NCBI GenBank assembly: GCA_016432345.1
Contig: CP066685.1
Coordinates: 496,236-560,235, forward strand
Source: Candidatus Levyibacteriota bacterium
GTDB taxonomy: Bacteria > Patescibacteriota > Microgenomatia > Levybacterales > UBA12049
Length of the DNA stretch: 64,000 bases
Reading direction: 5' to 3'
The stretch's first letter is position 1; every line of letters starts with the position of its first letter. The notes below the pieces were generated by a model. That model was given only the letters and a program-made list of their open reading frames with translations, searched no databases and was not told the origin of the DNA. Shown here piece by piece: positions 8,325-51,992 of this stretch. The position numbers and the translations under genes are program-made.

Positions 8325-8768
8325 ATGTTACTTGGACAATATGATGGAAAAGCAGATGAAAAAGGAAGAATAGCATTTCCAAAAAAGTTACGGACTGCAA
8401 TTGGCAATAAGATAATTGTGACGTTTGGATATGAAAATTCGCTTATCGTCGTATCGGAAGAAAATTGGAAATCGCTACTTGAGGGGACAAAAGGAAAGCC
8501 ATTTATTCAAAAAGACGCGCGGGAAACGCAGCGATTTTTACTGGGAGGGGCAAGTTTTGTTGAACTTGACAGCAAAGGAAGGTTTGTATTGCCAGCTTAT
8601 TTACGAGAATTTGCAAAAGTTACGGGAGAAATTGTATTCCTAGGATTGTTTAGATACGTTGAAATTTGGGACAAAAAACGCTGGTTAGAATACATGGAGA
8701 CGCTTCAGAAAAGTATTGACACAATTGCAAAGAGGTTGACAGAGAGGGAAGAAGGATATAAAGGGTGA
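8325..8768 (+). CDS. mraZ: Transcriptional regulator MraZ
   Basis: The sequence has duplicated SpoVT/AbrB-like halves (DEKGRIAFPKKLR and DSKGRFVLPAYLR). It is the first gene of the dcw cluster. Confidence 0.93.
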   Translation: MLLGQYDGKADEKGRIAFPKKLRTAIGNKIIVTFGYENSLIVVSEENWKSLLEGTKGKPFIQKDARETQRFLLGGASFVELDSKGRFVLPAYLREFAKVTGEIVFLGLFRYVEIWDKKRWLEYMETLQKSIDTIAKRLTEREEGYKG

Positions 8769-14231: not shown

Positions 14232-14233
14232 TT

Positions 14234-15214: not shown

Positions 15215-15217
15215 TGT

Positions 15218-16537
15218 ATGGAAAAGTTTATTATAAACGGCGGTAAAAAGTTAAGAGGCGAAATTAGAGTTTCTGGAGCAAAAAATGTTGCGCTTAAAGC
15301 TTTAGTTGCAGCGTGTTTAACCAGTGAGGAAGTAATTATTGATAATGTGCCTCACATTTTGGACGTATTTACGATGATTGAGATTATTAAGGATCTTGGT
15401 GGAAAAGCAATCATGCGTGATCATACTGTTACAGTGCGCGTTGATACCCTGCGTACAAAAATTCCATTTGATAAGGCGGTAGAAGTAAGGACATCGTCTA
15501 TGTTTTTAGCTCCTCTTTTGGCTCGAGCTAAAGAGGCTATTGTTCCAAATCCAGGCGGTTGCCGTATTGGCGCACGACCAATAAATAGGATAATTAAGGG
15601 GTTAAGGCAAATGGGCGCAATTATTACATATAACAGTAAGGACGGCTATTTTCATGCAAAAGCGAAACAACTAAAAGGCGTAACGTATGAATTTAAAAAG
15701 AATACACATACAGGTACTGAAACGATGATTATGGCCTCGGTTTTGGCAAAAGGTAAAACAATACTTAAAAATGCTGCGCTTGAGCCAGAAATTGATGAAC
15801 TTATTGCATTTTTAAATGGTATGGGAGCGAAGATAAAAAGACATTTAAGAACAATTACAATCGAGGGAGTTGAAGAACTCCACGGTGCACATTTTACCAT
15901 TGGTCCAGATCGTAATGAAGCAGTAACTTATGCCATTGCTGGAATAATTACAGAAGGAGAGGTTATAGTTGATGGGATTTTAGCAAAAGATATAAAAGAG
16001 TTTTTAGGAGTCTTAGATAAGGCTGGCGGCGGATACGAAGAAAAAGCAGATGGGATGCGATTTTTTTACAAAGGGAAGCTAAAGCCAACGGATATTTCGA
16101 CAAGTTGTTATCCTGGATTTATGACAGATTGGCAAAGCCCTTGGGCGGTTCTTATGACGAAAGCAAAGGGTACATCGTCAATTCATGAAACAGTTTTTGA
16201 AAGCAGGTTTGGTTATGTAGAGGAGCTAAAAAAAATGGGCGCGCATATTGCATTTTTTAATCCTAAAGTTGATGATCCAAAACGTGTTTATAATTTTAAC
16301 CTTTCTGACGCCAAAAAAGATAGCTATCATGCAATTTCTGTTTCTGGTCCAGCAAAATTGCATAATGCAGTTGTAAACATCACAGATTTACGGGCAGGTG
16401 CGACATTGGTGCTTGCATCGCTTGCCGGAAGCGGTACAAGTGTTGTTTTTGGAGCTGAAAAACTTGACAGAGGATATGAAAAATTTGACAAATGTCTTGT
16501 CCGTTTAGGCGCAGATATTAAACGAGTGAAGGATTAA
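15218..16537 (+). CDS. murA: UDP-N-acetylglucosamine 1-carboxyvinyltransferase
   Basis: The sequence shows ISGAKNVALKALVAA, the active-site loop PGGCRIGARPI with Cys, and TDLRAGATLVLA. Confidence 0.94.
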   Translation: MEKFIINGGKKLRGEIRVSGAKNVALKALVAACLTSEEVIIDNVPHILDVFTMIEIIKDLGGKAIMRDHTVTVRVDTLRTKIPFDKAVEVRTSSMFLAPLLARAKEAIVPNPGGCRIGARPINRIIKGLRQMGAIITYNSKDGYFHAKAKQLKGVTYEFKKNTHTGTETMIMASVLAKGKTILKNAALEPEIDELIAFLNGMGAKIKRHLRTITIEGVEELHGAHFTIGPDRNEAVTYAIAGIITEGEVIVDGILAKDIKEFLGVLDKAGGGYEEKADGMRFFYKGKLKPTDISTSCYPGFMTDWQSPWAVLMTKAKGTSSIHETVFESRFGYVEELKKMGAHIAFFNPKVDDPKRVYNFNLSDAKKDSYHAISVSGPAKLHNAVVNITDLRAGATLVLASLAGSGTSVVFGAEKLDRGYEKFDKCLVRLGADIKRVKD

Positions 16538-16538
16538 T

Positions 16539-17792
16539 ATGCAAGCAGTTATTTTAGCAGCAGGAAAATCAAGTCGTTTTTATCCATTTACAAATTATTC
16601 ACACAAGTCGCTTATTAAAGTTGCGGGTAAACCGCTTATTGTGCATACAATTTTAAGCCTAAGAAAGGCAGGAATTTATGAAATGATTATTGTTGTAGGC
16701 GAAGAAAGCAAAATTCCATCTGTAGTTAAATCTGAAAATCTTGATGTGTCAATAAAATTTGTTGTACAAAAAGAGCCGCTTGGCATGGGTAATGCTGTGC
16801 TTTTGGCAAGGGAGCATATCAAAGGTGATTTTTTACTCCTGAATGCACATCATGTTGATGTTGATTTATTTTTTAATGATCTGATGGGGATTAAAGACGG
16901 GGCAGATGCGGTTTTGTTGTCAGAAGAGCGTGAAGACGCATGGAAATATGGGGTATTACAGGTTGAAGGTCAAAAAGTTCTGGACCTTGTAGAAAAGCCC
17001 AAAAAACAAGATTTATCATCTCATCTTTGCGTGGTTGGAGTTTATCTTTTTTCAAAAATGTTTATTGATACACTTGCAAAAATACCAAGCGAGCATTATC
17101 AATTGGAAACCGCTATTTCGAAGTTTGCCAAAATCCGCACTGTTTTGATGATTAAAGCAAAGCAAAAAACAATTACCTTAAAGTATCCGTGGGATGCACT
17201 TTTGGTTAAAAACTACCTGTTAAATAACCTAAAATCGCATATATCATCCAAAGCAAAAGTTGCCAAATCGGCAGAAATTATTGGCAATGTGTATATAGAT
17301 AATGGAGCAACTATAATGGAGGGGGCATGTATAAAAGGCCCGTCTTATGTTGGCAAAAACGCAGTAGTTGGAACAAAAGCAATTATTAGAAATGGTGTAG
17401 ATGTTGAGCAAGATTGTGTTATAGGAGCAACTATAGAAATAAAAAATAGTTTATTGCAAGATGGCACAACAACACATTCGGGTTTTATAGGGGATTCTGT
17501 AATTGGGAGAAAATGCAAAATCGCCGCGGCATTTGAAACAGCAAATGTGCGAATAGATAGAAAAACAATTGGCGTTTTGGTTGCTGATGAAAAGATTGAC
17601 AGTGGTTTAAATTCTCTTGGGGTGATTATGGGAGATGAAGTGCGAGTTGGCATTCGTGTTTCCATAATGCCAGGAGTTGTTATTGGTCAAAATGCGACCA
17701 TTGGTCCATCAACAACTGTTTCTCGCAATATAAAAGAAAAGGTAACGTATTACACGAAATTTCAGGAGGTTGTTGAGGAGAAAAGAGAATGA
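16539..17792 (+). CDS. GlmU-like bifunctional sugar-1-P nucleotidyltransferase / left-handed beta-helix acyltransferase
   Basis: The N-terminus AVILAAGKSSRF is the NTP-transferase motif. The C-terminal approximately 170 aa consists of hexapeptide repeats (IGNVYIDNGATIMEGACIKGPSYVGKNAVVG...). Confidence 0.7.
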   Translation: MQAVILAAGKSSRFYPFTNYSHKSLIKVAGKPLIVHTILSLRKAGIYEMIIVVGEESKIPSVVKSENLDVSIKFVVQKEPLGMGNAVLLAREHIKGDFLLLNAHHVDVDLFFNDLMGIKDGADAVLLSEEREDAWKYGVLQVEGQKVLDLVEKPKKQDLSSHLCVVGVYLFSKMFIDTLAKIPSEHYQLETAISKFAKIRTVLMIKAKQKTITLKYPWDALLVKNYLLNNLKSHISSKAKVAKSAEIIGNVYIDNGATIMEGACIKGPSYVGKNAVVGTKAIIRNGVDVEQDCVIGATIEIKNSLLQDGTTTHSGFIGDSVIGRKCKIAAAFETANVRIDRKTIGVLVADEKIDSGLNSLGVIMGDEVRVGIRVSIMPGVVIGQNATIGPSTTVSRNIKEKVTYYTKFQEVVEEKRE

Positions 17793-18265
17793 TGAAAAAA
17801 GTTGTGCTTTTTGACATTGACTACACACTTTTTGATACGGAAAAGTTTAAGGGCACTAATTTGCAAACATTTGCACTGTATAAAGAAGCAGTTGATGTTT
17901 TGGAGAAATTGAAAGACACTGTATATCTTGGCATTTTTTCGGAAGGAAATCTTGACCTGCAAAAAACAAAATTAATTAAAACAAAGATTCATAGTAGTTT
18001 TACTAGAAAACACATACATATTGTGGTAAATAAAGAGGAAAGAATAGAACAGGTTTTAAAGAAATATAAAAATTGTTTGGTATTTCTTGTTGATGATAAA
18101 CTTACTGTTTTATGCCAAGCAAAAAAGCTGCTTCCTTCTCTTGTTGCAATTTGGGTAAAACGAGGAATATATGCAGAAAAACAGTTGCCTATTAATGGTT
18201 TTACGCCAGATGCTATAATAGAAAACCTTCGGGAGCTCATCCCGATTATTTTAAAGGATAAATAA
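17789..18265 (+). CDS. HAD-superfamily hydrolase/phosphatase
   Basis: HAD motif I is present as VVLFDIDYTLFD. The 158-aa ORF overlaps both neighbouring genes. Confidence 0.7.
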   Translation: MMKKVVLFDIDYTLFDTEKFKGTNLQTFALYKEAVDVLEKLKDTVYLGIFSEGNLDLQKTKLIKTKIHSSFTRKHIHIVVNKEERIEQVLKKYKNCLVFLVDDKLTVLCQAKKLLPSLVAIWVKRGIYAEKQLPINGFTPDAIIENLRELIPIILKDK

Positions 18266-18268
18266 CGT

Positions 18269-20044
18269 ATGTGTGGAATTTTTGGATACGTAGGCTTTAA
18301 ATCAAATGCTGCTCAAATAGCGCTTGAAGGGTTAAAATTATTGGAGTATCGCGGATACGATTCTTGGGGCGTTGCGGTAAAGCTTGGAAAAAAATTGGTT
18401 GTTGAAAAACATATTGGGAAAATTACTCTAGCTAAAACAGAGCTTCCAAAGAGCAGTCTTGGTATTGGTCACACCCGATGGGCAACTCATGGAGGAGTAA
18501 CAATAACAAATGCGCATCCACATCTGGACTGTAGCGGCGAAATTGCTGTTGTTCACAATGGAATTGTCGAAAATTTCGAAGATTTAAAACATGAATTAGT
18601 TGCAAAAGGTCATGATTTTAAATCAGGAACAGATACAGAAGTTATAGCACATCTTATTGAGGATTATATAGGAAAAGAAAGAAGCCTGCAGGGTTTTGCT
18701 TCGTCTGTGCGGGACGCGTTTAATCGGCTAAAGGGGTTGAGCGCCATTGTGGTCGCGTATGCGCCATCATCAGAAATTATTGCAGTTAAAACAGGTTCGC
18801 CTCTTGTTGTTGGTGTTTTGAAAAACGAATTATTTGTTGCGTCGGATGCGTCTGCTATTGTACAGCATACTAAAAAAGTGTTGTTTCTCGAGGATAGACA
18901 GATGGTTATTTTGGGTAAAAAGTTGCAGTTACTTCGTTTGCCAGAAGGGAAACAAATAATACCAATATTTCATACTATCAATTGGGAATTTGCAAAAGCA
19001 CAAAAAGGCAAGCACAAGCATTTTCTACTCAAAGAAATTCACGAGCAGCCTAAAGTAATTGAAAATATCGCATTACATTATATTGAGGAAACACAACAGT
19101 TGTCAAAACTTATTACTGATGCATTTGGTACTTTTATGCTTGGGTGTGGTTCTGCATCGTATGCTGCGTTGGCAGGCACATATCTTTTTTCCAGAATTGC
19201 CAAGAAACACGTTAACTTTTCGATAGGTTCTGAATTTACTTATCTTGAGGATTATCTAACGCCAGAGAGTTTGCTGATTGCAATTTCGCAGTCTGGTGAA
19301 ACGATCGATGTGGTTGAGCCGGTTGAGAAAGCGAAGAAAAAAGGTTCACAAATTGCAGCGCTGGTGAACGTTTTGGGTTCAACATTGTATCGTCAGGCAA
19401 ATCATAAAATTCTTCTTGGAGCAGGAGTGGAAAAAGCAGTCATTTCCACAAAAAGTTTTATTGCTATGATATCTGTGTTACTTTTGACTGCGTACACGAT
19501 GGCAAAAAGACAAAATGAAGCGCAGGAAATGCTTCGTCTTGCGGCAAATAATATTCGTCTTATATTACAGGATTCGTATGTGAAGCATATAAAAACTCTT
19601 TCCAAAAAACTTAGCCGTACACAATACGTTTTTGTTATTGGACGAGGATTGTCTTATGCCATAGCTCTTGAAACAACGCTTAAGCTAAAAGAAACCAGTT
19701 ATACCCATGCAGAAGGATTTGCAGGAGGTGAGTTAAAACATGGTGTTATCGCTTTAATTGAAAAGGGAACTCCTTGTATTGTAATTGCTCCACAGGATGA
19801 AACTTATAATGAGATTATTTCCAATGCCCAACAAATAAAGGCCAGGGGTGGATATATTGTAGGTATTGGATCTAGAAAAAATGACGTGTTTGATCTTTTT
19901 TTTGAAACAGCCGATGTTGGAGATGCGACCATGCTTCCGCAGGTAGTTATTGCTCAACTTATTGCATATTACACGGCTTTAGCAAAAGGAATTTCTGATC
20001 CAGACAAACCTCGAAATCTTGCCAAAAGTGTGACGGTAAAATAG
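18269..20044 (+). CDS. glmS: Glutamine--fructose-6-phosphate aminotransferase (isomerizing)
   Basis: It has the MCGIFGY N-terminal nucleophile, two SIS domains and a C-terminal PRNLAKSVTVK. Confidence 0.95.
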   Translation: MCGIFGYVGFKSNAAQIALEGLKLLEYRGYDSWGVAVKLGKKLVVEKHIGKITLAKTELPKSSLGIGHTRWATHGGVTITNAHPHLDCSGEIAVVHNGIVENFEDLKHELVAKGHDFKSGTDTEVIAHLIEDYIGKERSLQGFASSVRDAFNRLKGLSAIVVAYAPSSEIIAVKTGSPLVVGVLKNELFVASDASAIVQHTKKVLFLEDRQMVILGKKLQLLRLPEGKQIIPIFHTINWEFAKAQKGKHKHFLLKEIHEQPKVIENIALHYIEETQQLSKLITDAFGTFMLGCGSASYAALAGTYLFSRIAKKHVNFSIGSEFTYLEDYLTPESLLIAISQSGETIDVVEPVEKAKKKGSQIAALVNVLGSTLYRQANHKILLGAGVEKAVISTKSFIAMISVLLLTAYTMAKRQNEAQEMLRLAANNIRLILQDSYVKHIKTLSKKLSRTQYVFVIGRGLSYAIALETTLKLKETSYTHAEGFAGGELKHGVIALIEKGTPCIVIAPQDETYNEIISNAQQIKARGGYIVGIGSRKNDVFDLFFETADVGDATMLPQVVIAQLIAYYTALAKGISDPDKPRNLAKSVTVK

Positions 20045-20047
20045 CGT

Positions 20048-20752
20048 ATGGAAAAAAAATCAATTGTTATTCTTCATGGGTGGGGATTAAGAGGATCTGT
20101 CTATAAAAATCTTGTTTTAATATTAAAGAAAGAGGGATACTCTGTTTACTTCCCCGATCTGCCTGGGTTTGGAGCAGAGTCGTTGACGAAAGACTCAATG
20201 ACACTCGATGATTATGTAACTTTTCTTCGAAAATTCATAGAAAAAAATAAACTTAAAAAACCAATTTTAATTGGTCATTCTTTTGGTGGAAGAGTGGCAA
20301 TTAAGTATGCATGGCGAAATCCACAACATATTTCCAAACTTATTTTAACCGGCGTACCAGTTATTCGCAATACATCATTTAGAAAAAAAATCGCATTTTT
20401 AATTGCAGTTGTGGGAGGAAAAATTTTGAAAGTTTTTAATCTAAAAATACAAGATATTGGAAAAAAAATCTTGTATAGATCGATTAGTGAATGGGATTAT
20501 TATAATGCGGGACCTCTTAGACAGGTGTTTAAAAATATAATCGGAGAGGAGCTTACTGGATATGCAAAAAGTTTAAAAATGCCAGTTATTTTGGTGTGGG
20601 GAAAAGACGATCGTATTGTTCCGTATACGGATGTTGAGAAGATTAAAAAAATTATTTCTCATGCGCAACCTGTTGTTGTTGCAAATACTGGTCATAGGCT
20701 TCCTTACTTGAATTCTAAAGCATTTTATACTGCGATTAAAAATTTTCTATGA
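20048..20752 (+). CDS. Alpha/beta-fold hydrolase
   Basis: It has the HGWG oxyanion region, the nucleophile elbow GHSFGG and a C-terminal GHRLP (His). Confidence 0.75.
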   Translation: MEKKSIVILHGWGLRGSVYKNLVLILKKEGYSVYFPDLPGFGAESLTKDSMTLDDYVTFLRKFIEKNKLKKPILIGHSFGGRVAIKYAWRNPQHISKLILTGVPVIRNTSFRKKIAFLIAVVGGKILKVFNLKIQDIGKKILYRSISEWDYYNAGPLRQVFKNIIGEELTGYAKSLKMPVILVWGKDDRIVPYTDVEKIKKIISHAQPVVVANTGHRLPYLNSKAFYTAIKNFL

Positions 20753-24693: not shown

Positions 24694-25710
24694 ATGGCGC
24701 AGGTGTTGGGGCTGATTATCCTTTCTTTTTTTATCACAGGCATACTTTTGGTTCCGTTTATTGATTTTCTCTATAAAATAAAGCTGCAGCGGCAGGTGCA
24801 AAAAACCAAGGATATGTTTGAAAAGCGGACTCCGCTTTTTGACAAGCATCATGCTTGGAAAGTAGGCACTCCTTTTGGTGGAGGAGTATTAATTATTGTT
24901 GTAGTATCTATTCTTACCCTTTGGGCATACGGCATGTTTGGTATTCTCATAAAGCCATGGGAGCTTTTTGTGCTCCTTTTTTCCTTTATCGGCTTTGGGC
25001 TACTTGGTTTGTACGATGATGTAAAAAAGCTTGTTAATGGCAAAAAAGCATCGGTTTTGGGCTTGCGCTTTCGACATAAATTCCTAATTCAGTGGTTTTT
25101 GGCCTTTATTATTGCCGCAGTTATGTATACTCAACTTGGGTACTCATTTATTTTTATTCATGGTTTTGGGCTGGCGACCATTGGCATTTTATACGTGTTT
25201 TTTGCCGCATTTGTGATTGTATCTTTTACCAACGCATTTAATATTGCCGATGGATTGGATGGTTTGGCAAGCGGTTTACTTTTAATTTGTCTCGGCGCGT
25301 TTTTGGCAATTGCATCATCCCAGCTTGACGATGCTCTGGGAGTATTTATTGCAGTGTTAATGGGAAGCGTCATGGCCTTTTTGTACTTTAATATTTATCG
25401 GGCGCGGCTTTGGCTTGGCGATGTTGGGTCTATGTCTTTGGGAGCGGCGCTTGCGGTAATAGGGCTTTTAACTGGAAAAACTCTTGCCTTGGCAGTTATT
25501 GGAGGAGTATTTGTTATCGAAGTAGGATCGTCTCTTATCCAAATTTTGGGTAAAAATTTTTTGGGTAAAAAAATTTTTCACGCAGCGCCATTTCACCTTT
25601 ATTTGCAAGAGCGAGGTTGGGAAGAACCAAAAATTGTGATGAGGGCTTGGCTGTTAGGGTTTCTCTTTGCCATTATTGGTTTGTATCTTGCATTTATTAA
25701 AGTTGGGTAG
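24694..25710 (+). CDS. mraY: Phospho-N-acetylmuramoyl-pentapeptide transferase
   Basis: The protein is polytopic and carries the signature NAFNIADGLDGLASG and HAAPFHLYLQ. Confidence 0.94.
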   Translation: MAQVLGLIILSFFITGILLVPFIDFLYKIKLQRQVQKTKDMFEKRTPLFDKHHAWKVGTPFGGGVLIIVVVSILTLWAYGMFGILIKPWELFVLLFSFIGFGLLGLYDDVKKLVNGKKASVLGLRFRHKFLIQWFLAFIIAAVMYTQLGYSFIFIHGFGLATIGILYVFFAAFVIVSFTNAFNIADGLDGLASGLLLICLGAFLAIASSQLDDALGVFIAVLMGSVMAFLYFNIYRARLWLGDVGSMSLGAALAVIGLLTGKTLALAVIGGVFVIEVGSSLIQILGKNFLGKKIFHAAPFHLYLQERGWEEPKIVMRAWLLGFLFAIIGLYLAFIKVG

Positions 25711-26797: not shown

Positions 26798-27907
26798 ATG
26801 AAAATTCTTATTACAGGAGGAGGTCACTTTTCGCCAGCAATGGCAGTAATTGAGTCGTTGCCAAAAGGCATAAGCGTATTGATGGTGGGTCGAAAGTACT
26901 CATTTGAAGGCGACAACGCGCTATCTATTGAGTATATAGTATGTCAAGAAAGAGGTATTCCATTTATTGCATTATCAACCGGAAGATTACAACGTAAGTT
27001 TACAAAATATACAATTTCCTCTCTTTTGAAAATTCCATTTGGATTTTTTAAAGCACAAAAAATAATGCGTGATTTTAAGCCAGATGTGGTGTTGTCGTTT
27101 GGCGGATATATTTCGCTGCCAGTTGTTTTGGCAGCATATGCGTTTAGGACTCCTATTGTGGTGCATGAACAAACGCTTGAAGCAGGAATGGCAAATAAAA
27201 TTGCATCGTATTTTACGAAAAAAGTTTGTATTTCATGGGAATCATCAAGAAAGTTTTTTCCGAAAAAGAAAGTTGTATTAACGGGAAACCCGATTAGAAG
27301 ATTTAAGATTAAAGATTTAAGATTAAAGATTAAAGATGACGAGAAATTGCCGATTATTTATGTAACTGGGGGGAGTTCGGGGTCGCATGCGATTAACCTG
27401 TTGGTTGAAGGATGTATTGAAGGGCTTTTGGAAAATTTCATTGTATTTCATCAAACAGGCGATGCAAAAGAATTTAATGATTTTGAAAGACTTAATACAT
27501 TTAAAAAAACTTTAAAAAGCTCGTTGCAGAAGCGGTATATTTTAGAAAAATTTGTGCCAATGCAGAATGTTGGAGAGGTAATTAATCGAGCGGATCTAAT
27601 TATATCAAGATCGGGAATCAACACAATAACAGAGCTGTTATTTTTTGGTAAACCTGCAATACTTATTCCTATAACATTTTCTCAAAGAAACGAGCAGTTG
27701 AAAAATGCTACTTTTTTGCAAGAACACGGCTTGGCAAAAGTACTGGAACAAGAGACGACAACAAGCGAAACGCTTTATCAGGAAATTTTAGAGATGCTAA
27801 AGCAGAAAAACGAATATATGAAATCCGCAAAAGAGGCAAAAAAGCTTGTTATTCCAGATGCTCGAGAAAGAATACTTGCTGTACTGCAGCAAGTTGTGAA
27901 AAAATAG
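26798..27907 (+). CDS. murG: UDP-GlcNAc:lipid I GlcNAc transferase MurG
   Basis: It is a GT28 GT-B enzyme with ITGGGHFSPA, VHEQTLEAGMANK, LTGNPIR and VTGGSSGSHAIN. It contains the period-7 cassette at 27301-27335. Confidence 0.9.
   Translation: MKILITGGGHFSPAMAVIESLPKGISVLMVGRKYSFEGDNALSIEYIVCQERGIPFIALSTGRLQRKFTKYTISSLLKIPFGFFKAQKIMRDFKPDVVLSFGGYISLPVVLAAYAFRTPIVVHEQTLEAGMANKIASYFTKKVCISWESSRKFFPKKKVVLTGNPIRRFKIKDLRLKIKDDEKLPIIYVTGGSSGSHAINLLVEGCIEGLLENFIVFHQTGDAKEFNDFERLNTFKKTLKSSLQKRYILEKFVPMQNVGEVINRADLIISRSGINTITELLFFGKPAILIPITFSQRNEQLKNATFLQEHGLAKVLEQETTTSETLYQEILEMLKQKNEYMKSAKEAKKLVIPDARERILAVLQQVVKK
27301..27335 (+). repeat. Period-7 array (ATTTAAG ATTAAAG ATTTAAG ATTAAAG ATTAAAG), 35 nt, in frame in murG
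   Basis: There are five units in two variants. It encodes FKIKDLRLKIKD in the interdomain linker just before IIYVTGGSSG. Confidence 0.93.
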
Positions 27908-33767: not shown

Positions 33768-36581
33768 ATGTTAAAACCAGTCACCTCGCAAGTTGATTTT
33801 CCCAAACTCGAGGAAGAAATTATACAGTTTTGGAAAATCAATAAAATTTTTGAAAAATCAGTTGCCAAAGAAGCGCCAAAAGGTAATTGGACATTTTTAG
33901 ATGGGCCGCCTTTTATTACAGGGCTTCCTCATTATGGTAGTTTGCTTTCTAGTATTCCCAAAGATTTATTTCCCCGTTTTAAAACCATGCAGGGGTATAG
34001 GGTTAGACGTGTTTGGGGTTGGGATTGTCATGGTCTTCCGGCGGAAAATAAAGTGGAAAACAAATTGAGTATTACCCGCAAAAAAGATATTGAAGAAAAA
34101 ATAGGAGTTAAAAAATTTATTGACGAATGTAAATTGTATGTTAAGGATGTGTCTTCGGAATGGGAATGGTATGTAGACCACGTTGGCCGCTGGGTTGATT
34201 TTAAAAATGCCTACAAAACCATGGACTTACCATATATGGAGACAGTGATGTGGGTATTTAAACAAATGTACGACAAGGGTTATATTTACAAAGGTCTTCG
34301 GGTGTCGCTTTATTGCCCACATTGCTCAACGCCAATATCAAACTTTGAGGTTGCGATGGATGTTGATAATTATAAAGAGATAACTGATGCGGCAACAACA
34401 TATAAATTTGAGTTGCAAGATGAACTAAAGACGTTTATTCTTGCTTGGTCAACAACTCCCTGGAATAAAATTGTTACTCCTGCGTTGGCAGTTAATCCAA
34501 AATTGACTTATGTAAAAGTTAAGCAAGGTAACGAAAATTATATTTTAGCTAAAACAACTCTAAAAATACTTACTGGAGATTACAAAATTGTGGAAGAATT
34601 TAAAGGGGCAAAACTTGTGGGCATGCAGTATGTTCCGCATTACGATTATTATCCAATCGAAAAAGGCAAACAAGCATTTGTGATTATTCCTGGTGATTTT
34701 GTTACAGCAGAAGAAGGCACAGGAGTTGTAACAATTGCTGCTTATGGGGAAGAAGATTTAAAAGCCATGCAGGAAAATAATATCCATATTGAAATGCATC
34801 TGGACGAAGAAGGAACAATCAAACAAGATGTAGCACTTTTTGGCGGGATGTACTATCTTAAGGCGAATAAAGCCGTCAACGAAGATTTGGCAAAGAGGGG
34901 TTTAATTTATAAAGACGAGCAGTTGCCTCACAATGTTCCATTATGTTGGCGGTGTCATACTCGTTTGTATTATGGGCCGCAGAATGCCTGGTACGTGAAT
35001 GTGCAGAAATTAAAAAAAGAAATGAAGGAAACAAATGAGACTACTAATTGGTTTCCCAAACATTTTAAATATGGCCGATTTTTAAAAAGCTTAGAAGCAG
35101 CGCCAGATTGGTGTATTTCAAGAAGTCGTTATTGGGGATCGCCTGTGCCGGTATGGGAGTGTACATGCGGACAGCGGATAGTACCCGGTTCAATTAGAGA
35201 ATTAGAAGAATTCTCCGGTAAAAAAATTACAGATTTGCACAAACCCGAAATTGACGAAGTAATTATTAAATGTTTATCATGCGGCAAGAATGCAAAACGG
35301 GTCACCGAAGTTTTGGATAGCTGGATCGAAGCAGGTTCTGCGTCGTTTGCCGAACGCCATTTTCCTTTTAATAAAAGCGTAAAACTTACCGATTTTTTCC
35401 CACCCGATTTTATTGTGGAATATACAGGACAAATCCGCGCCTGGTTTTATGTGTTGCATGTGATTACAAATGCTTTGTATAAATCAAACGCCTACAAAAA
35501 TGTTGTGGTAACAGGAGTTATTTTAGGGACCGATGGCAGGAAGATGAGTAAAAATTACGGCAATTATCCAGATCCGAAAGAAATGCTGCAAAAATATGGC
35601 GGTGATGCACTGCGACTTTACTTAATGGGAAGTCCTGTGATGCATGGAGAAGATATCCTTATTTCTGAAGAACAATACAAACAACAAGTTAAAGGCACCA
35701 TACTTATTTTGTGGAATGTGTACAATTTTTTCGTATCAAATGCGATCGTTGACCAGTATCAAGTGTTAAGTATAAAGTATAAAGTATCAGAGAATATATT
35801 AGATCAATGGATCGTTTCATTGCTACAGAAGTTGATAAAAGAAATAACAGATGCTTTAGAAAAATACGATACTATTTTGGCTATAAAAGAAGCAGAAGGA
35901 TTTGTTGGTGATCTTTCGACTTGGTACATCAGGCGAAGTAGAGATAGGGTGGGAGCTGCGGTAGAAAATAGTAAAGATAAAAGGGCGTTTTATGAAACAA
36001 CATATTATGTGTTAACAACTCTTTGTAAACTTCTTGCGCCCATTATGCCATTTATTACAGAAGAGATGTATAAAAATTTAACAGGGGAGGAATCGGTTCA
36101 TTTATCGGATTGGCCGCGAACAGATCAAAGATTAAAGATCAAAGATCAAAGAATAGAAATCGAAATGGAGCAAGGTATACAACTTGCGTCAAAAGTGCAT
36201 GCTTTACGAAAACAGACAAATATCAAAGTTCGTATCCCTCTTAGAAAATTATCATACAAAGGACCAGAGGAACTTATAAAAGAAGTAAAGAAGGTTGTTT
36301 TGGATGAGGTGAATGTATACGAATTAGTTTATGCGGGCAAGAGTGATAATTATGAAGTTTCTGGTGATACAAGTCAAAAAAATCAGGATATCGAAGCAGG
36401 AAAAGCGCGGGATATTATTCGAAGTATTCAAGAAGAGCGAAAAAAACTTGGCACCAGCCTTGATGAATATGTTGATGTTGTTATCGAATCCTGGCCAAAA
36501 GAATTTGAAAATACAATCAAAAAGAAAGCGCTAGTTAAAACGCTTATTAAAGGTAATCAATTTAACGTTGTTAGAATATGA
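33768..36581 (+). CDS. ileS: Isoleucine--tRNA ligase (type 2, eukaryote/archaeal-like)
   Basis: The sequence shows GPPFITGLPHYG (HIGH variant), KMSKNYGN (KMSKS), a CP1 editing domain and WCISRSRYWG. It contains period-7 cassettes at 35755-35789 and 36123-36157. Confidence 0.95.
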   Translation: MLKPVTSQVDFPKLEEEIIQFWKINKIFEKSVAKEAPKGNWTFLDGPPFITGLPHYGSLLSSIPKDLFPRFKTMQGYRVRRVWGWDCHGLPAENKVENKLSITRKKDIEEKIGVKKFIDECKLYVKDVSSEWEWYVDHVGRWVDFKNAYKTMDLPYMETVMWVFKQMYDKGYIYKGLRVSLYCPHCSTPISNFEVAMDVDNYKEITDAATTYKFELQDELKTFILAWSTTPWNKIVTPALAVNPKLTYVKVKQGNENYILAKTTLKILTGDYKIVEEFKGAKLVGMQYVPHYDYYPIEKGKQAFVIIPGDFVTAEEGTGVVTIAAYGEEDLKAMQENNIHIEMHLDEEGTIKQDVALFGGMYYLKANKAVNEDLAKRGLIYKDEQLPHNVPLCWRCHTRLYYGPQNAWYVNVQKLKKEMKETNETTNWFPKHFKYGRFLKSLEAAPDWCISRSRYWGSPVPVWECTCGQRIVPGSIRELEEFSGKKITDLHKPEIDEVIIKCLSCGKNAKRVTEVLDSWIEAGSASFAERHFPFNKSVKLTDFFPPDFIVEYTGQIRAWFYVLHVITNALYKSNAYKNVVVTGVILGTDGRKMSKNYGNYPDPKEMLQKYGGDALRLYLMGSPVMHGEDILISEEQYKQQVKGTILILWNVYNFFVSNAIVDQYQVLSIKYKVSENILDQWIVSLLQKLIKEITDALEKYDTILAIKEAEGFVGDLSTWYIRRSRDRVGAAVENSKDKRAFYETTYYVLTTLCKLLAPIMPFITEEMYKNLTGEESVHLSDWPRTDQRLKIKDQRIEIEMEQGIQLASKVHALRKQTNIKVRIPLRKLSYKGPEELIKEVKKVVLDEVNVYELVYAGKSDNYEVSGDTSQKNQDIEAGKARDIIRSIQEERKKLGTSLDEYVDVVIESWPKEFENTIKKKALVKTLIKGNQFNVVRI
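33838..33872. repeat. 35-bp direct repeat, copy 2 (native ileS codons 24-35, WKINKIFEKSVAKE)
   Basis: It is identical to 32773-32807. It lies in the conserved N-terminal region of IleRS, upstream of the PPFITGLPHYG (HIGH-type) motif. Confidence 0.95.
35755..35789 (+). repeat. Degenerate period-7 array (AGTATCA AGTGTTA AGTATAA AGTATAA AGTATCA), 35 nt, in ileS
   Basis: It has five units of consensus AGTRTYA. It encodes QYQVLSIKYKVS. Confidence 0.8.
36123..36157 (+). repeat. Period-7 array (GATCAAA GATTAAA GATCAAA GATCAAA GAATAGA), about 35 nt, in ileS
   Basis: It has four clear units and one degenerate unit. It encodes DQRLKIKDQRI and shares AGATTAAAGAT(T/C)AAAGAT (17/18 nt, same reading frame, peptide RLKIKD) with the murG array. 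Confidence 0.88.
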
Positions 36582-45215: not shown

Positions 45216-48200
45216 TTATAACATTTTCCTCATTTTAAGATAAGATAATCCTGTTGCTCCAAATAACAAAACCCCAGCAATCGGCAAAAAATTTATTTTA
45301 TTTTTTTCTTGCAGAGTTGGTTTATCTGCAGATTTGGATTCGACAGTTTGCTGATCTAATTTTGATTCTTTTTTGAGTTCTTCTTTTGGTTTTGGTTCTA
45401 TTTTTGCTCCCAGCACATTTTCTTTAAAGCCCGCTGCCGCGCCTTGTTCGGAAAATCCAATTGGCGTAGCGGCAATTTCGTTGGAGTAATCTCCTGGGGT
45501 ACATCCATTGCCCGCCCGTACTCTAAAATAATATGTCTGTCCGCCGGAGAGATTTTCTACCACAAAATTGGTTGTTCCTTTTCCTCCAATGTTGGGGTTG
45601 CCATACTGCAATTTTCCAGGCTCTGTTCCATAGGCAATAAGGTAATACGAAATTGGCCCCGCCCCTTCTTTCCATGATAGTGCGACGGTGTTGATGCCGG
45701 CAAAAGTGGAAGTGAGGGTAGGCGCGCTTTGTGGCTTTTCGTCGTTGCAAGTTGCAGCAGAGGTGGAGTTTGAAGATGTAGAAGATGAGGAACTAGAACT
45801 TGAAGCAGTTACTGTCGGTGTTGGTGTCGGAGTCGGAGTTGGAGTAGGTGTTGGTGTGGGAGTGAGCGTTGGGTCGCTGGCAAGGGTAATACTTCGTTCG
45901 TCGGTTACCTGCTCGGGCGAGCCGCGGGAAATAAGGCGGTAGTAGTAGGTTTTTCCAGGCAGCAAATCGGTGATTGTTACAGAATGGTTTTTTGTTTTTG
46001 TTGGTTTTTCGTCGGTTCCATTGTCGTATCCATATTTAGTTCCAGAGCCTTTGACTTTTTTTGACTGGCTGCCAAAAACAACGCGACTATACGATGGTCT
46101 ATCGGTTGTCCAGGTAACAGTAAAAGAAGTCGCGGTATTTTCGGCAACGGTTATTGACGTATCGTCAATTTTTGGGGCGATTTCATATTCTTCTGTGAGC
46201 GTGTCGCTTAGATTACCTGCAGTATCTTTTGCTACCGTTTTGAGTGTTACACTGCTGCCGTCAATTATAATTGGCGCAACGTAGATGAGTCTGGCGCTGG
46301 AGGTGGAAGGATCTGTTCCATCGAGGGTATAAAAAATGGTAGGTTTATTAGGTGCATCAAGACTTGTAATTTCAATTGATCGTGGTTTTAGATATTTATC
46401 TCCTGGAATGTCCACTGTAGGTTTGGTTGGAGGAATGCCATCTGTTGGAGTGGTAGTTTGTTGGTTATTCCATTTGTCTGATGAGATATCTTTAATGCCA
46501 GTTCCTGTTCCATTTCCTTTGAGGGTAACAATCGGTGTTTTTCCTGCGTCATTTGGTTCTGTTGTTTCTTCAATAGTTATTGTAACTTTGTTTTTCTCAT
46601 TGCCATCTCGTTTTGCGGTAACAACTTTGTATCCTTCAACATTAAAATCAGAATTATTGCTTGATTCATTTACTGTGTTCGCGTTTACATCCCGTACAAA
46701 AGTTACCTCAATTTTATCTATTTTGCCGTTGTTATTGGTATCAAGGGTTTTGGTGCTTTTTATTTGCGGTGGTGTGGTATCAGTTGGTGTTGTATCGTTG
46801 CTTTCGCCATTTTGTTTATATCCCAGAGAAAACGTCGCCGGCTCATCATTTTTTGTTTGGCTCGAAATTTTGTTTACAGTTGCGCTGCCAGTTGCTGTAT
46901 GTCGATACGTTTCAAGCTTAAATTGGTTTATGACAGCGCTTGTTGTTGCAACAGTAATGCTATATGTGTCGTTATTTGGTTTAGGTATTAGCAGCATTTT
47001 ATAGTCTGGACTTGTAGTTTCGCTTATTGGATCTTTAATGCCATGCTCTAGATAATAGATAGCGTTTGGTATATCGGTATAGGTGGTTGTGCCATTACTG
47101 CCTGCTTTTTGACCACTGCTATTTGTTAGATATATGTCAACATCTGGGTCTACAACAACTATTAGATACGAAAGATTCGTATTAGAAGGGATAAATCGTC
47201 TCATGGAAAGAAAAGTATCGTTGTATGAGGCTAAAGTTGTCCTCTCATCGTAAAAAGGATCGTTAATATCAAAAGTTGTTCCATTGATTCCCTTGGCAAC
47301 AATAAAATGTCCTGGTTCTTCAAGTATTACTGGATTATTACTATCTAATTGGTTTTTTAATTTAGTTTTGTCATTGTCGCCCCACACAAATTCTAAGGCA
47401 TCAAAATCAGTGATATTATTTACTGTTTTTGCAAGTTTGGATAAGTCGGCTATGGCTGCCCAATTTACTTTGCCTCGTATATAGCCACCATCGCCACCTT
47501 CATAATTTTTTAACCAAAGATTTAGAGTATCTGGTTGGAGATCAGATCCATCTGGCAATTTTTTAATACCATAGTAATTAAGTATCATTGCAGCCGATGT
47601 CATAGCACATCCCCAGCGATTGATTGTTGTTGCTTCTCCAGTTTTTGCCCAATCGGTTGCAGTGTCATATTCTAATCCCTGCCACGGCTCCGAAGTTTGC
47701 TTAAGTAGCGGAACATCGAGCGGAGAATCGATGTTCGTAACAACAATGTTATCAAACCAGACTTCTGAATCTGGATCTGCGCCAACGCTTGCTTGAAGAC
47801 CAATTGTTCCACCATCAAAATAAGGCGAAGAATCCTCCAATTTCCAGATTTCATCATTGTTAATAAATAATTTAATTACATTTTTAGAAAATTCTATTTT
47901 AAAATGGTATGTTTGGTTATCCTGAAAAGAATATGATTTTTGTTCTACTCGATAGTAACTTCCTATAACTTTTTGAAAGTATATAGTTGATCCGTAAGTC
48001 ATAAAGTCATACCAATTAGAGGAGTCTAAATACTTAAATAGGATGTTTCTATTAGCTATAGCTGTGTTTTTATATTCCATATCAAAGCTGTACGAGTATC
48101 CAATAAAGCCAGAAAGATCAAAATTGTTTGGAATAATTTCAGTTGTGCAACTTGGACCGTTTATTCTAATACCAGCCTTGCCATTTTCTATATTCCAAGT

Positions 48201-48404
48201 AGTAGGGATACCCCCGTACAAACAGGACTTTGATGTATTTGAGTATTGTGTGTTTCTTTTAACAGCCCAATTATTTAAATTTCCTGTATCAAAGTTTTCT
48301 TGGAATACTTTATGAGAGGCAAAGCTTTGTGAAGTAAAAAATAGACTAATAAAAGCCAAAAAAATAAAAACAAAAAGAAACCTGAGGGCCATCAGTTTCT
48401 TCAC
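45216..48404 (-). CDS. Large multidomain surface protein: signal peptide, LamG/ConA-like lectin, C39-like cysteine peptidase, Ig/FN3-like repeats, (TP)n/poly-Ser linker, FN3 and C-terminal anchor
   Basis: 1062 aa. The C39-like core carries Cys in RWGCAMTSAAMILNYYG and His in PGHFIVAKG. FYTLDGTDPS is chitobiase-C-like. TVTWTTDRPSYSRVVFG and LSWKEGAGPISYYLIAYG are FN3-like. The C-terminus LPIAGVLLFGATGLSYLKMRKML is a hydrophobic segment followed by a basic tail. Confidence 0.8.
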   Translation of the reverse strand: MKKLMALRFLFVFIFLAFISLFFTSQSFASHKVFQENFDTGNLNNWAVKRNTQYSNTSKSCLYGGIPTTWNIENGKAGIRINGPSCTTEIIPNNFDLSGFIGYSYSFDMEYKNTAIANRNILFKYLDSSNWYDFMTYGSTIYFQKVIGSYYRVEQKSYSFQDNQTYHFKIEFSKNVIKLFINNDEIWKLEDSSPYFDGGTIGLQASVGADPDSEVWFDNIVVTNIDSPLDVPLLKQTSEPWQGLEYDTATDWAKTGEATTINRWGCAMTSAAMILNYYGIKKLPDGSDLQPDTLNLWLKNYEGGDGGYIRGKVNWAAIADLSKLAKTVNNITDFDALEFVWGDNDKTKLKNQLDSNNPVILEEPGHFIVAKGINGTTFDINDPFYDERTTLASYNDTFLSMRRFIPSNTNLSYLIVVVDPDVDIYLTNSSGQKAGSNGTTTYTDIPNAIYYLEHGIKDPISETTSPDYKMLLIPKPNNDTYSITVATTSAVINQFKLETYRHTATGSATVNKISSQTKNDEPATFSLGYKQNGESNDTTPTDTTPPQIKSTKTLDTNNNGKIDKIEVTFVRDVNANTVNESSNNSDFNVEGYKVVTAKRDGNEKNKVTITIEETTEPNDAGKTPIVTLKGNGTGTGIKDISSDKWNNQQTTTPTDGIPPTKPTVDIPGDKYLKPRSIEITSLDAPNKPTIFYTLDGTDPSTSSARLIYVAPIIIDGSSVTLKTVAKDTAGNLSDTLTEEYEIAPKIDDTSITVAENTATSFTVTWTTDRPSYSRVVFGSQSKKVKGSGTKYGYDNGTDEKPTKTKNHSVTITDLLPGKTYYYRLISRGSPEQVTDERSITLASDPTLTPTPTPTPTPTPTPTPTVTASSSSSSSSTSSNSTSAATCNDEKPQSAPTLTSTFAGINTVALSWKEGAGPISYYLIAYGTEPGKLQYGNPNIGGKGTTNFVVENLSGGQTYYFRVRAGNGCTPGDYSNEIAATPIGFSEQGAAAGFKENVLGAKIEPKPKEELKKESKLDQQTVESKSADKPTLQEKNKINFLPIAGVLLFGATGLSYLKMRKML
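45813..45863 (-). repeat. Coding hexanucleotide repeat encoding (Thr-Pro)8-Thr linker, followed by a poly-Ser run
   Basis: TPTPTPTPTPTPTPTPT is encoded with varied synonymous codons. The adjacent SSSSSSSSTSS run is at about 45769-45810. Confidence 0.9.
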
Positions 48405-49952: not shown

Positions 49953-50981
49953 ATGACTATACTTTTTTTTGCCAGGTTGTTTTGGCCTCATGGGGGTGGG
50001 GTGGAGACGCATGTTTTGGAAGTGGGGAAAAGGTTAATTGGAAAAGGATATAAGGTTGTAGTTGTTACCGAATTATTAGCAAAGACAAAAGAAAAAGAAA
50101 ATATAGGGGGGATTGAGATTTTTAGAATTCCGGTTGGGAAAGATAATTGGTTTAAGAAATTTAGAATTTGGAAGTGGTTTTGGCAAAACAGAAAGTTAAT
50201 CCAGCAAGCAGATATTGCGCATGCTCACGACGTTTTCTTTTGGTACCTGCCTTTTCGTTTTCTCTATCTTAACAAACCAATCTATACTACCTTCCATGGC
50301 TACGAAACAAAATTCCCTCCGGCAAAGAAAGCAATTTTCGTTCGTAGGCTAAGCGAGAAGCTCTCTTGGGGAAACATTTGTGTAGGAGACTATATTAAAA
50401 AGTGGTACAAGACAAAACCGAACTACATTACTTACGGAGGCGTGAACGTCCACCTCGGAGGAGTCATGGTTTCGCAAGCTCAGCAGCCTGCCACCATCCG
50501 AGGTGAAGACCAAAAACTTAACATACTTTTCATCGGGAGATTGGAGGAGGATATTGGGATTAGCTTGTATTTACAAGCTATACGAAAGATGAAAAAGACC
50601 AGAAATGTAGATGTTATTTTTTTGGGAGATGGGAGTTTTCGACATGAGGCAGAGAAGTTGGGCAGAGTTACAACATTTCAAGAGAAGTTTGTCGTCCAGG
50701 CAGATGTGGTATTTGCCTCTTCATATCTTTCGATGCTGTCTGCCATGGCTGCCAAAAAACCAGTTGTTGCCGTGTATACAAATTCTCTAAAAAAAGATTA
50801 CTTAACTATGACACCGTTTGCAAAGTTTATAACGATTGTTGATTCTCTTGATAAGATTGTGGATACAGTAAAAAATTTAGAGAAAACAAACCAGATGGTC
50901 GATCAGGCATATGACTGGGTAAAAGGTCAGACATGGGAGAAGATAGTTAATCTATATATAAAATTGTGGAAGATGAATTAA
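49953..50981 (+). CDS. Glycosyltransferase family 1 (GT-B)
   Basis: The sequence shows FWPHGGGVETHV and ILFIGRLEEDIG. A locally GC-rich stretch lies at about 50434-50510 in the interdomain linker. Confidence 0.8.
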   Translation: MTILFFARLFWPHGGGVETHVLEVGKRLIGKGYKVVVVTELLAKTKEKENIGGIEIFRIPVGKDNWFKKFRIWKWFWQNRKLIQQADIAHAHDVFFWYLPFRFLYLNKPIYTTFHGYETKFPPAKKAIFVRRLSEKLSWGNICVGDYIKKWYKTKPNYITYGGVNVHLGGVMVSQAQQPATIRGEDQKLNILFIGRLEEDIGISLYLQAIRKMKKTRNVDVIFLGDGSFRHEAEKLGRVTTFQEKFVVQADVVFASSYLSMLSAMAAKKPVVAVYTNSLKKDYLTMTPFAKFITIVDSLDKIVDTVKNLEKTNQMVDQAYDWVKGQTWEKIVNLYIKLWKMN

Positions 50982-51041: not shown

Positions 51042-51992
51042 ATGAAGATAAGTTTTATTTCGACTGTTTACAATGAGGAGAAGACGATTGGATGGATGCT
51101 AGAGAGTTTGGCAAAACAGACGAGGATGCCAGACGAGATGATTATTGTAGATGGAGATTCAACCGACAGTACGCTGTCGGTAATTTTCAATTTTCAATTT
51201 TCAATTTTCAATCAAAACACAAAAAATAAATTTTCAAAAATAAAAATACTTACAAAAAAAGGGAATCGGGCGGTGGGACGAAATGAGGCGATAAGAAATG
51301 CGACAGGCGATATTATTGTATGTTCGGATGCGGGATGCCAGTTGGATAAGGATTGGGTGAAGAATATTGTGAAGCCGTTTGAAAATCCAAAAGTAGATGT
51401 TGTCGCAGGGTACTATGCAGCAAAGCCACAATCGATCTTTCAAAAATGCCTGGTGCCATATGTGCTTGTTATGCCAGATAAGATTGACCCTAAAAATTTT
51501 CTTCCGGCATCCCGCACAATGGCATTTAGAAAATCTATTTGGGAAAAAGTTGGTGGGTTTCCAGAAAGATACTCGCATAACGAAGATTATGTTTTTGCAA
51601 AGAAGTTAAAGCACATTGGAGTAAATATCGTTTTTGCCAAAGATGCCATTGTTTACTGGATGCCTCGAAAGAATCTAAAGCAAGCATTCATTATGTTTTT
51701 CCGCTTTGCCTTTGGCGACGCAGAAGCTCGTATTTTTCGCCCAAAAGTTTTTTTGATTTTCGTTCGTTATTTATTTGTATTTTTTCTCATTTTTTTACTT
51801 ATTGGTTTTCAACTATACGCTATACGCTATACGCTATACGCTATGTTTTTATTGTACGTGACGTGGTCTGTTTGGAAGAACTACAAATACGTTGCAGACT
51901 GGCGCGCAATCGTAATTTTGCCTATACTACAAATAACTGCTGATATTGCAGTAATTTTGGGAACGATATGGGGTATACAACACAGGCAATAA
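51042..51992 (+). CDS. Glycosyltransferase family 2 with C-terminal TM region
   Basis: The sequence shows ISFISTVYNEE, IIVDGDSTDST, GRNEAIRNA and CSDAG, with C-terminal hydrophobic helices. It carries cassettes at 51183-51213 and 51813-51844. Confidence 0.85.
   Translation: MKISFISTVYNEEKTIGWMLESLAKQTRMPDEMIIVDGDSTDSTLSVIFNFQFSIFNQNTKNKFSKIKILTKKGNRAVGRNEAIRNATGDIIVCSDAGCQLDKDWVKNIVKPFENPKVDVVAGYYAAKPQSIFQKCLVPYVLVMPDKIDPKNFLPASRTMAFRKSIWEKVGGFPERYSHNEDYVFAKKLKHIGVNIVFAKDAIVYWMPRKNLKQAFIMFFRFAFGDAEARIFRPKVFLIFVRYLFVFFLIFLLIGFQLYAIRYTLYAMFLLYVTWSVWKNYKYVADWRAIVILPILQITADIAVILGTIWGIQHRQ
51183..51213 (+). repeat. Perfect heptanucleotide array (AATTTTC)x4.4 in a GT2 gene
   Basis: Period-7 identity holds from 51183 to 51213. 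It encodes IFNFQFSIFN just after the DGDSTDST motif. Confidence 0.95.
51813..51844 (+). repeat. Perfect heptanucleotide array (CTATACG)x4.6 in the same GT2 gene
   Basis: Period-7 identity holds from 51813 to 51844. It encodes LYAIRYTLYAM within the C-terminal hydrophobic region. Confidence 0.95.

Follow-up and report, generated by a model that had tools for sequence, protein, structure and literature searches.

A translated heptanucleotide array in ileS of a Candidatus Levyibacteriota bacterium and similar arrays across Levybacteria

We analysed a 64-kb stretch of a Candidatus Levyibacteriota genome (contig CP066685.1, positions 496,236 to 560,235; hereafter the window), which has a GC content of ~37% and a positive GC skew throughout. 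Its ileS gene carries a short tandem run of 7-nt units inside the open reading frame (ORF), and a run of related units stands in the unrelated gene murG. Both genes are essential, and essential genes would be expected to lose repeats with a unit length not divisible by three, since each one-unit slip is a frameshift. How did such an array come to stand in ileS, and how did it come to resemble the one in murG? Our analysis identifies the ileS tract as a translated heptanucleotide microsatellite, one of a class that pervades the coding sequence of this genome and its relatives. These arrays are common, old and kept perfect in ileS, murG and glycosyltransferase genes of a lineage of the candidate phyla radiation (CPR).

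Repeats in the window were detected with Tandem Repeats Finder (TRF) and with exact-run and near-exact period scans. The relatives were represented by 80 loci (1.3 Mb in total, given below as L numbers; 1.36 Mb with the window) from a scan of species-representative genomes, comprising Levybacteria and a few other Microgenomates. In the census of the 80 loci and the window, arrays were counted from at least four copies and at least 86% identity, and the chance expectation for arrays was taken from triplet shuffling. For the insertion test, 120 IleRS homologues, 120 MurG homologues, the 80 loci and the solved IleRS structure PDB 8c8v were aligned.

The ileS array and its likeness to murG

The ileS gene (33768..36581, plus strand) encodes a type-2-like IleRS of 937 aa with the Pfam domains tRNA-synt_1 and Anticodon_1, whose best PDB match is 8c8v. 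The protein is identical (100%) to that of a Candidatus Levyibacteriota metagenome-assembled genome (MAG), and the nearest other IleRS is 76% identical. TRF placed the array, here called site C, at 36122..36152 on the plus strand (period 7, 4.4 copies, 91% matches). It comprises the units AGATCAA AGATTAA AGATCAA AGATCAA AGA(ATAG), and the stretch 36121..36160 reads acAGATCAAAGATTAAAGATCAAAGATCAAAGAATAGaaa. Translated in the ileS frame it gives T-D-Q-R-L-K-I-K-D-Q-R-I. A sequence-only reading of this DNA had reported a period-7 array encoding DQRLKIKDQRI at this place, and both TRF and the codon reading confirmed it; the last unit listed there, GAATAGA, is degenerate. In the AlphaFold model of the window IleRS (mean predicted local distance difference test 75.7), the site C residues 780–794 form a coil flanked by helices 761–772 and 795–816.

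A second array, site B, lies upstream in the same gene at 35755..35789 (plus strand) and is a degenerate (AAGTATM)n tract (TRF period 7, 4.7 copies, 84%) encoding QYQVLSIKYKVS. Its residues 662–676 are modelled as a coil between long helices. The relative L001 has a perfect (AAGTATC)5.7 array at site B, with the length unchanged relative to the window. In L022, IleRS site B reads SKSQIPS SKSQVPN HKSQAPA, a triple with a 21-nt period that may have been derived from a heptamer array after divergence.

The murG gene (26798..27907, plus strand; Pfam Glyco_transf_28 N and C domains) belongs to a dcw cluster comprising mraY, ftsW, murG, ftsA and ftsZ. Its array occupies the GT-B interdomain linker at 27292..27339 on the plus strand, where TRF reported 27292..27337 either as period 7 with 6.4 copies or as period 14 with 3.2 copies at 93%. 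It is built of AGATTTA and AGATTAA units encoding RRFKIKDLRLKIKD. The murG and ileS arrays share AGATTAAAGATYAAAGAT, read in both as AGA TTA AAG ATY AAA GAT (RLKIKD) in an identical codon register. Allowing at most two mismatches, the 18-mer AGATYAAAGATYAAAGAT had seven overlapping matches in the window, all of them in these two arrays, against 0.05 in shuffled sequence. The previously proposed 18-nt share therefore held in its frame, and in the window its family was confined to these loci, but without the Y wildcard the longest exact stretch was 12 nt (AAGATTAAAGAT). The similarity ended at the array edges, and the flanks were unrelated.

A chance likeness in an AT-rich genome is scarcely tenable. 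At a GC content of ~37%, AT-rich units will look alike by composition, but the 18-mer did not occur at the frequency that composition predicts, shuffling yielded 0.005 period-7 arrays where the window has seven, and a composition-only null gave 1.3–1.4% of unit pairs with at most one mismatch where 13–14% were observed. Nor is the murG–ileS pair exceptional, as the sequence-only reading had implied: units with at most one mismatch make up 13% of pairs from different genomes and different sites, a background that predicts about three such pairs among the 21 window pairs, and two were seen.

We then considered whether a mobile or templated cassette of ~35 nt was inserted in both genes. The 18-mer family stands in one frame in two unrelated genes, and small GC-rich in-frame inserts occur in relatives, so mini-insertions do happen in the lineage. 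Against this, neither site shows a net insertion. At site C, PRTDQRLKIKDQRIEIEM aligned over PACDQT-KV-NEKLEKEM of 8c8v with a gain of 2 aa, and the segment between WP and EM had 18 residues in array-free orthologues and 20 in array-bearing ones, with 22 in a single case; the suggested lineage-specific insertion of ~12 aa in ileS was thus not borne out, and the alignments revealed no insertion of 7 or 12 aa at either the ileS or the murG array. The murG linker had a modal length of 34 residues in the region cut whether the array was present or absent (0 aa difference), and 18 of 24 IleRS arrays were 0–2 aa off the median orthologue in length. No inverted repeats were found within 170 nt on either side of the ileS array, no target duplications and no terminal repeats were found, and similarity did not extend outside the arrays. 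GATYAAAGATYAAA had no match in the 1.3 Mb of related genomes, no further copies turned up in the window or the 80 loci, and orthologous sites elsewhere already carry arrays with other units. A mobile cassette is unlikely, and insertion of one such element into both genes is very improbable.

Two observations concern the dcw cluster. The window mraY contains a period-15 repeat, AAATTTTGGGTAAAA, with 2.5 copies at 25541..25577. In L090, an island (12950..20538) interrupts the cluster after ftsA and contains RadC, a type I restriction-modification system (HsdM, HsdS, HsdR), KilA-N, an RVT_3 protein and a Y1 transposase fragment.

Period-7 arrays in the window and in related loci

The window contains seven period-7 arrays (four exact, seven near-exact) made of five different units. 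Comparable arrays were absent at periods 8–15, and no exact array of at least three copies was found in the window at any other period from 5 to 21. The same period with five units indicates that the process is specific for period 7 and not for GATYAAA. The sequence-specific repeat-generating process proposed earlier is therefore upheld as a process, and its specificity lies in the period.

Besides site C and murG, the window arrays comprise site B and four arrays in glycosyltransferase genes, all on the plus strand; the sequence-only reading had missed these five, as well as the weak intergenic tract described below. A (CAAATAC)5 array (365..399, an exact 35-nt run) stands just before the C-terminal domain of a GT4 glycosyltransferase (Pfam Glycos_transf_1 / Glyco_transf_4) and encodes NTKYQIPNTKY. 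The adjacent GT4 paralogue has (AAATACC)4.9 in the equivalent linker (1413..1446, an exact 34-nt run), encoding EIPNTKYQIPNT. These two arrays have one shared unit and a 34-nt identical stretch, and their flanks are not identical. A GT2 glycosyltransferase carries two arrays. The first, (AATTTTC)4.4 (51182..51212, an exact 31-nt run), encodes VIFNFQFSIFN and is followed by three degenerate units spanning ~21 nt (~51213..51233), which amount to a 7-aa insertion relative to orthologues. The second, (CTATACG)4.6 (51813..51844, an exact 32-nt run), encodes QLYAIRYTLYA in the membrane part of the protein, where it takes the place of part of a membrane segment at a length equal to that of the orthologue.

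A weak (TAATTTT) tract between rplU and the start of the L27 gene (38106..38138, plus strand; TRF period 7, 4.9 copies, 74%) possibly belongs to the same class outside a gene. Glycosyltransferases host five of the seven window arrays, and seven of the eight tracts, counting the weak one, are coding.

The census of the 80 loci and the window gave 46 arrays at period 7, compared with 6, 9 and 1 at periods 5, 6 and 8, respectively, and none at periods 9–15. Exact arrays of at least three copies showed the same peak in the related loci, with 18 at period 7 and 0–2 at each of periods 5, 6 and 8–21. Of the 46 arrays, 45 occur within long ORFs in the sense orientation, and 44 are in frame. The hosts are IleRS (four recurrent sites), MurG, the GT4 linker, GT2 (two sites), the C-terminal tail of L21 and a FemAB protein. 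A typical array has ~29–37 nt and 4–6 units and sits in a variable loop or interdomain linker, where it is read through all three frames in turn to give 7-aa periodic, strand-turn-strand-like peptides. The lengths of exact period-7 runs were bimodal, with chance runs up to 15 nt, four runs at 21–28 nt and 17 at 29–37 nt.

The only other notable array in the window is a period-6/12 repeat, GTCGGA (45813..45863, 8.3 copies, 79%). Its host is a minus-strand ORF (45216..48404) encoding a multi-domain surface-type protein of 1062 aa (Peptidase_C39-like, CHB_HEX_C, fn3).

Unit family, concerted change and the origin of the arrays

In a common register, the 46 consensus units follow A(44) A(40) W W W T(29) C(38), and 36 of them are stop-free in all three frames. 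In an AT-rich unit, C alone can link a T run to an A run without forming TAA, TAG or TGA, and the reverse orientation would carry TGA. Because stop codons bar the other links, the arrays show the sense orientation, more C than G, and a TCAA core. The same constraint is visible within single arrays. In the AGATTAA units of murG, TTA or GAC stands for TAA exactly in those units in which TAA would be in frame, and in both ileS and murG the T-for-C variants are confined to units with TAA out of frame. The replacement of in-frame TAA demonstrates that the arrays are translated and under selection.

Composition together with stop-avoidance was tried as a full account of the unit family and was rejected as insufficient, the nulls giving 1.6–6% of unit pairs with at most one mismatch and CAA in 18–40% of units. 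Peptide tolerance probably contributes to the narrow unit family, because F/L, I and N in an x-hydrophobic-x-hydrophobic-x-N pattern are encoded by the AATT core. Common ancestry may play a part as well, or a preference of the process for certain sequences.

At orthologous sites, the start, register and length of the arrays are constant, yet all units of an array have changed together. At GT2 site 1, the 31 nt directly after GTCGGT are built of AATTTTC in the window and of AATTTCC in L004; across the orthologous arrays, start and length are kept with AATTTCC or AAATTTC in L004, L063 and L023 and AATTTTC in L053. At GT2 site 2, the window has CTATACG where L004 has CTATTAT, with codons and length unchanged. 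At IleRS site D, array-like periodic peptides occur in 15 species, and in the 13 species whose DNA was viewed the register of the AATT core is constant in most while the other three positions co-vary. The IleRS proteins of L013 and L016 are 92% identical and have GAATTAA and AAATTAA arrays, respectively. Among the closest MurG homologues, 31 of 120 have a linker with a 7-aa periodicity. The murG arrays of L090, L092, L053 and L077 stand in the register of the window array, and the register xxATTxx is common to the arrays of the window, L090, L092 and L053. This pattern points to old features that are continually homogenised and not to fresh insertions.

Differences that may reflect steps of whole units were seen at a few places, among them the three-unit insertion beside the first GT2 array of the window. 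In the murG of L077 (Levyibacteriota MAG OFTM197; 1557..1600), the frame shifts inside an (AAATTTC)4.7 array as if one unit were missing, with a stop codon immediately downstream of the array; all other ORFs of the locus look intact. Recoding on its A_AAT_TTC sequence, a canonical −1 slippery pattern, is conceivable. In L037 (21209..21300), a frameshift inside a degenerate period-7 tract at the interdomain linker divides the GT4 gene, the orthologue of window 49953..50981, into two ORFs. In IleRS, a 17-aa indel between half-arrays distinguishes alleles of 99.9% identity. A flank-anchored metagenome scan for the L004 GT2 array matched a single contig, whose 31-nt array was the same.

With moderate confidence, we take these arrays to be heptanucleotide microsatellites in coding sequence, with 7-base-register misalignment and selection as the forces that shape them. 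Arrays would arise and stay homogeneous when strands misalign by that register in replication or repair, through slippage as well as short templated conversion from one unit to its neighbour. Selection would pass only those outcomes that are in frame, stop-free, compatible in length and tolerated in a loop. A chance seed of 1.5–2 units plus three units in frame would lead to the typical array of ~5 units; a patch-wise process would fit the peak in array size equally, and the data do not separate the two. The arrays of one genome probably also exchange sequence. The murG–ileS resemblance would then follow from the narrow unit family, possibly reinforced by exchange, with no shared inserted cassette.

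Several results weigh against this account. No test that we made accounts for the period being 7. Simple slippage predicts gains of 21 nt, whereas most arrays differ by 0 to +2 aa from array-free orthologues, and this near-zero length change means that conversion or compensating events must be invoked. In eight strain-level genomes of one population (that of L004), compared over ~14 kb of shared sequence with the alignment upstream of position 8650 unreliable because gene content differs in two strains, three arrays showed no copy-number change, so mutability is not high on short time scales. Under a null of array composition plus stop-avoidance, CAA is expected in 40% of units and found in 83%, and unit pairs with at most one mismatch reach 4.5–6%, below the share observed. 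Finally, minus-strand ORFs make up 25% of coding bases (~31% outside ileS) and hold none of the 45 ORF-borne arrays, and in the window all seven arrays are on the plus strand although about one third of the coding DNA is on the minus strand; the significance of this absence is uncertain because orthology makes the arrays non-independent.

The only indel among the eight strains in the ~14 kb is unrelated to arrays. It is a 49-nt insertion, TATATACATTCATCTTACTCACCCCCGAATAATAGGTAAGTGAAAAAAA, at ~17250..17299 of L083, which truncates a GT4 gene from 364 to 322 aa.

Exchange between arrays offers another source for the murG–ileS likeness: by ectopic conversion or template switching, ileS would have copied AGATYAA units from the murG array, or the reverse. 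Identical units were found in 6 of 45 same-genome pairs from different sites, in 20 of 872 different-genome pairs from different sites and in 6 of 118 orthologous pairs. The excess within genomes (13% vs 2.3%, ~6-fold) had a Fisher p of 0.001 and a permutation p of 0.005, with the limit that the pairs are non-independent and one genome supplies three of the six identical pairs. In L053, AATTTTC recurs in murG, GT4 and GT2, with a degenerate version in IleRS; IleRS sites C and D of L040 are identical over 35 nt including a variant end unit; and the identity of the two GT4 arrays of the window is of the same kind. The site C unit has one mismatch to the window murG unit and two to the site C unit of L001, and the probable closest relative differs at both sites (IleRS P0002 and MurG P0170, which we infer to come from the same genome).

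Other results speak against such copying at this pair. The murG and ileS units differ by T versus C, their exact shared stretch is short, and pairs with at most one mismatch were not enriched within genomes (17.8% vs 13%, p = 0.36). The murG unit AGATTWA is shared with L090 in the same register and was thus probably inherited and not recently copied. No ileS was found within 10 kb of the murG genes P0149 and P0218, which bear arrays of the AGATTT type. Exchange between the arrays of one genome is plausible in general, and the gene conversion put forward earlier finds its footing there; for murG and ileS the evidence is weak and mixed, and direct copying between them is doubtful.

A bolder possibility, to which we give little credence, is that Microgenomates possess a dedicated or idiosyncratic process that writes or rewrites patches of ~30–35 nt as tandem heptamers and spreads units between unlinked loci of one genome. 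Candidates are a template-switching polymerase, a repair pathway or a templated element. On this view the arrays would form a class of sequence that spreads itself and is overprinted on essential proteins where loops tolerate it, and would not be ordinary slippage products. The peaked size of 29–37 nt, the unchanged protein length, the identical units within genomes and the lack of minus-strand arrays are compatible with such a process.

Known heptanucleotide repeats and mini-inserts in relatives

The closest parallel is neuO of the Escherichia coli K1 prophage CUS-3, whose (AAGACTC)n 'poly-psi' repeat varies by slippage and is translated only if the copy number is divisible by three (PMC13001214). 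The 3–53 units lie at the 5' end of the coding region, in a phage cargo gene that is not essential; switching is frequent, and 66% of genomes are OFF (PMC13001214). As in neuO, the Levybacteria arrays are coding tandem repeats with a 7-nt unit not divisible by three, in which copy number sets the frame and three frames yield a heptad peptide. The neuO unit is itself stop-free, fits A-A-x-x-x-T-C and is one mismatch away from the AAAACTC seen in Levybacteria. Unlike neuO, the Levybacteria arrays are short (4–6 units), internal, fixed in length, stable between strains and present at many loci per genome. Glycosyltransferases would fit a contingency locus of the neuO type, but the hosts also include L21 and the essential ileS and murG.

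The arrays might instead be functional elements maintained by selection, whether for a useful strand-turn-strand peptide, as bound DNA or RNA heptamers (for example, with one cold-shock-domain protein per heptamer) or as phase-variation switches of glycosyltransferases. The same sites are kept across deep divergence, as in the 15 species at IleRS site D and the MurG linker homologues; F/L, I and N of the hydrophobic pattern are specified by the conserved AATT core; glycosyltransferases host most window arrays; and both frameshifted alleles are in GT-B enzymes. CspB binds heptamer repeats (reviewed in PMC4679880). Nevertheless, identity at 7-nt spacing, synonymous positions included, is beyond the reach of selection at the protein level, a sequence-specific binder would hardly fit five different units in one window, and the essential single-copy genes ileS and murG are poor candidates for an on/off switch. 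Arrays of 4–6 units that are invariant in eight strains also contrast with the wide unit range and frequent OFF state of neuO. We judge a selected function of this kind to be improbable.

Heptanucleotides are the commonest class of long-unit simple sequence repeats (SSRs) in prokaryotes, and a polymerase contact of ~7 nt was proposed to favour slippage (Mrazek, Guo and Shah 2007, as summarised in PMC4679880 and PMC4692102). In those summaries, prokaryotic long SSRs are mostly intergenic and under-represented in ORFs, coding units are expected to be divisible by three, and GGGNATC has a preferred size of ~4 units (PMC4679880, PMC4692102). The arrays described here resemble them in having head-to-tail 7-nt units beyond chance and in the prominence of period 7. 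They differ in that 45 of the 46 lie in ORFs, and the CPR lineage lies outside those surveys.

The TAACTGA or short tandemly repeated repetitive (STRR) sequences of Beggiatoaceae and cyanobacteria have 2–6 copies, and strains differ by indels in 7-nt steps (PMC4679880). There they are described as having one dominant unit per genome, with stops in the forward orientation, and as lying chiefly upstream of start codons; the rare copies inside ORFs take the stop-free orientation and encode LSVISYQ-type peptides in variable surface loops. The Levybacteria arrays share the stop-free orientation and the variable loops with these ORF copies. Unlike the TAACTGA and STRR repeats in general, they comprise five units in 64 kb, are stop-free or interrupted and are nearly all coding.

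Borg tandem repeats in ORFs, recently formed and quick to evolve, create disordered protein regions (PMC9879509). They and our arrays are alike as perfect tandem repeats inside ORFs that yield peptide repeats. Borg coding repeats are reportedly insertions whose units are longer and divisible by three; the Levybacteria unit is 7 and protein length is conserved.

Nothing specific to Patescibacteria or CPR turned up in a literature search on repeats with 7-nt units. Heptanucleotide SSRs and the coding heptamers of neuO are known, and short, constant-length, strain-stable arrays inside essential CPR genes appear to be a new form of such repeats. The results also suggest that micro-arrays scattered over one genome can undergo concerted evolution. 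If the pattern is true genome-wide, these bacteria would offer a natural system for the question of a 7-base register in bacterial replication or repair, posed by the 2007 SSR surveys, and a mutational bias would be overwriting protein loops at constant length. For CPR annotation, peptides such as KFQISNF, EFRIQNS, KLKTQNS and RLKIKD would be by-products of nucleotide repeats and not protein motifs, and a MAG frameshift such as a murG split at an array may be a real slippage allele.

Relatives of the window also contain small GC-rich in-frame inserts, at 5681..5694 of L001 (murG), 2506..2519 of L003 and 11606..11619 of L045 (both ileS) and 15324..15337 of L069; none was found in the window. 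Palindromes are found among them, such as TCCGCCAGCTGGCGGA, with PPAGG as its translation from either strand. The ileS of L004 has a 30-nt insert, CCCGGCCTCGCCAAGCGAAGCGGGGCGGGC, at 12008..12037, and a third group consists of SGQA-type elements with TCAGGRCAAGC. GC-rich palindromes were considered as a cause of the arrays and rejected, as the window has arrays without palindromes.

These inserts appear to be another class of mini-insertion, selfish or templated. Rickettsia palindromic elements are in-frame selfish insertions, and the inserts resemble them as short palindromic DNA placed in frame at tolerant sites of essential genes; the heptamer arrays, unlike those elements, are neither palindromic nor insertions. 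Several inserts stand exactly in mid-array, as in KFQISNF-PGLAKRSGAG-KFQISN, QFS-PPAGG-FNFQLP, KYQVSSI-PSARAQGEG-KYQVSK and KFRIQNS-RLAAKRA-EFRIQK.

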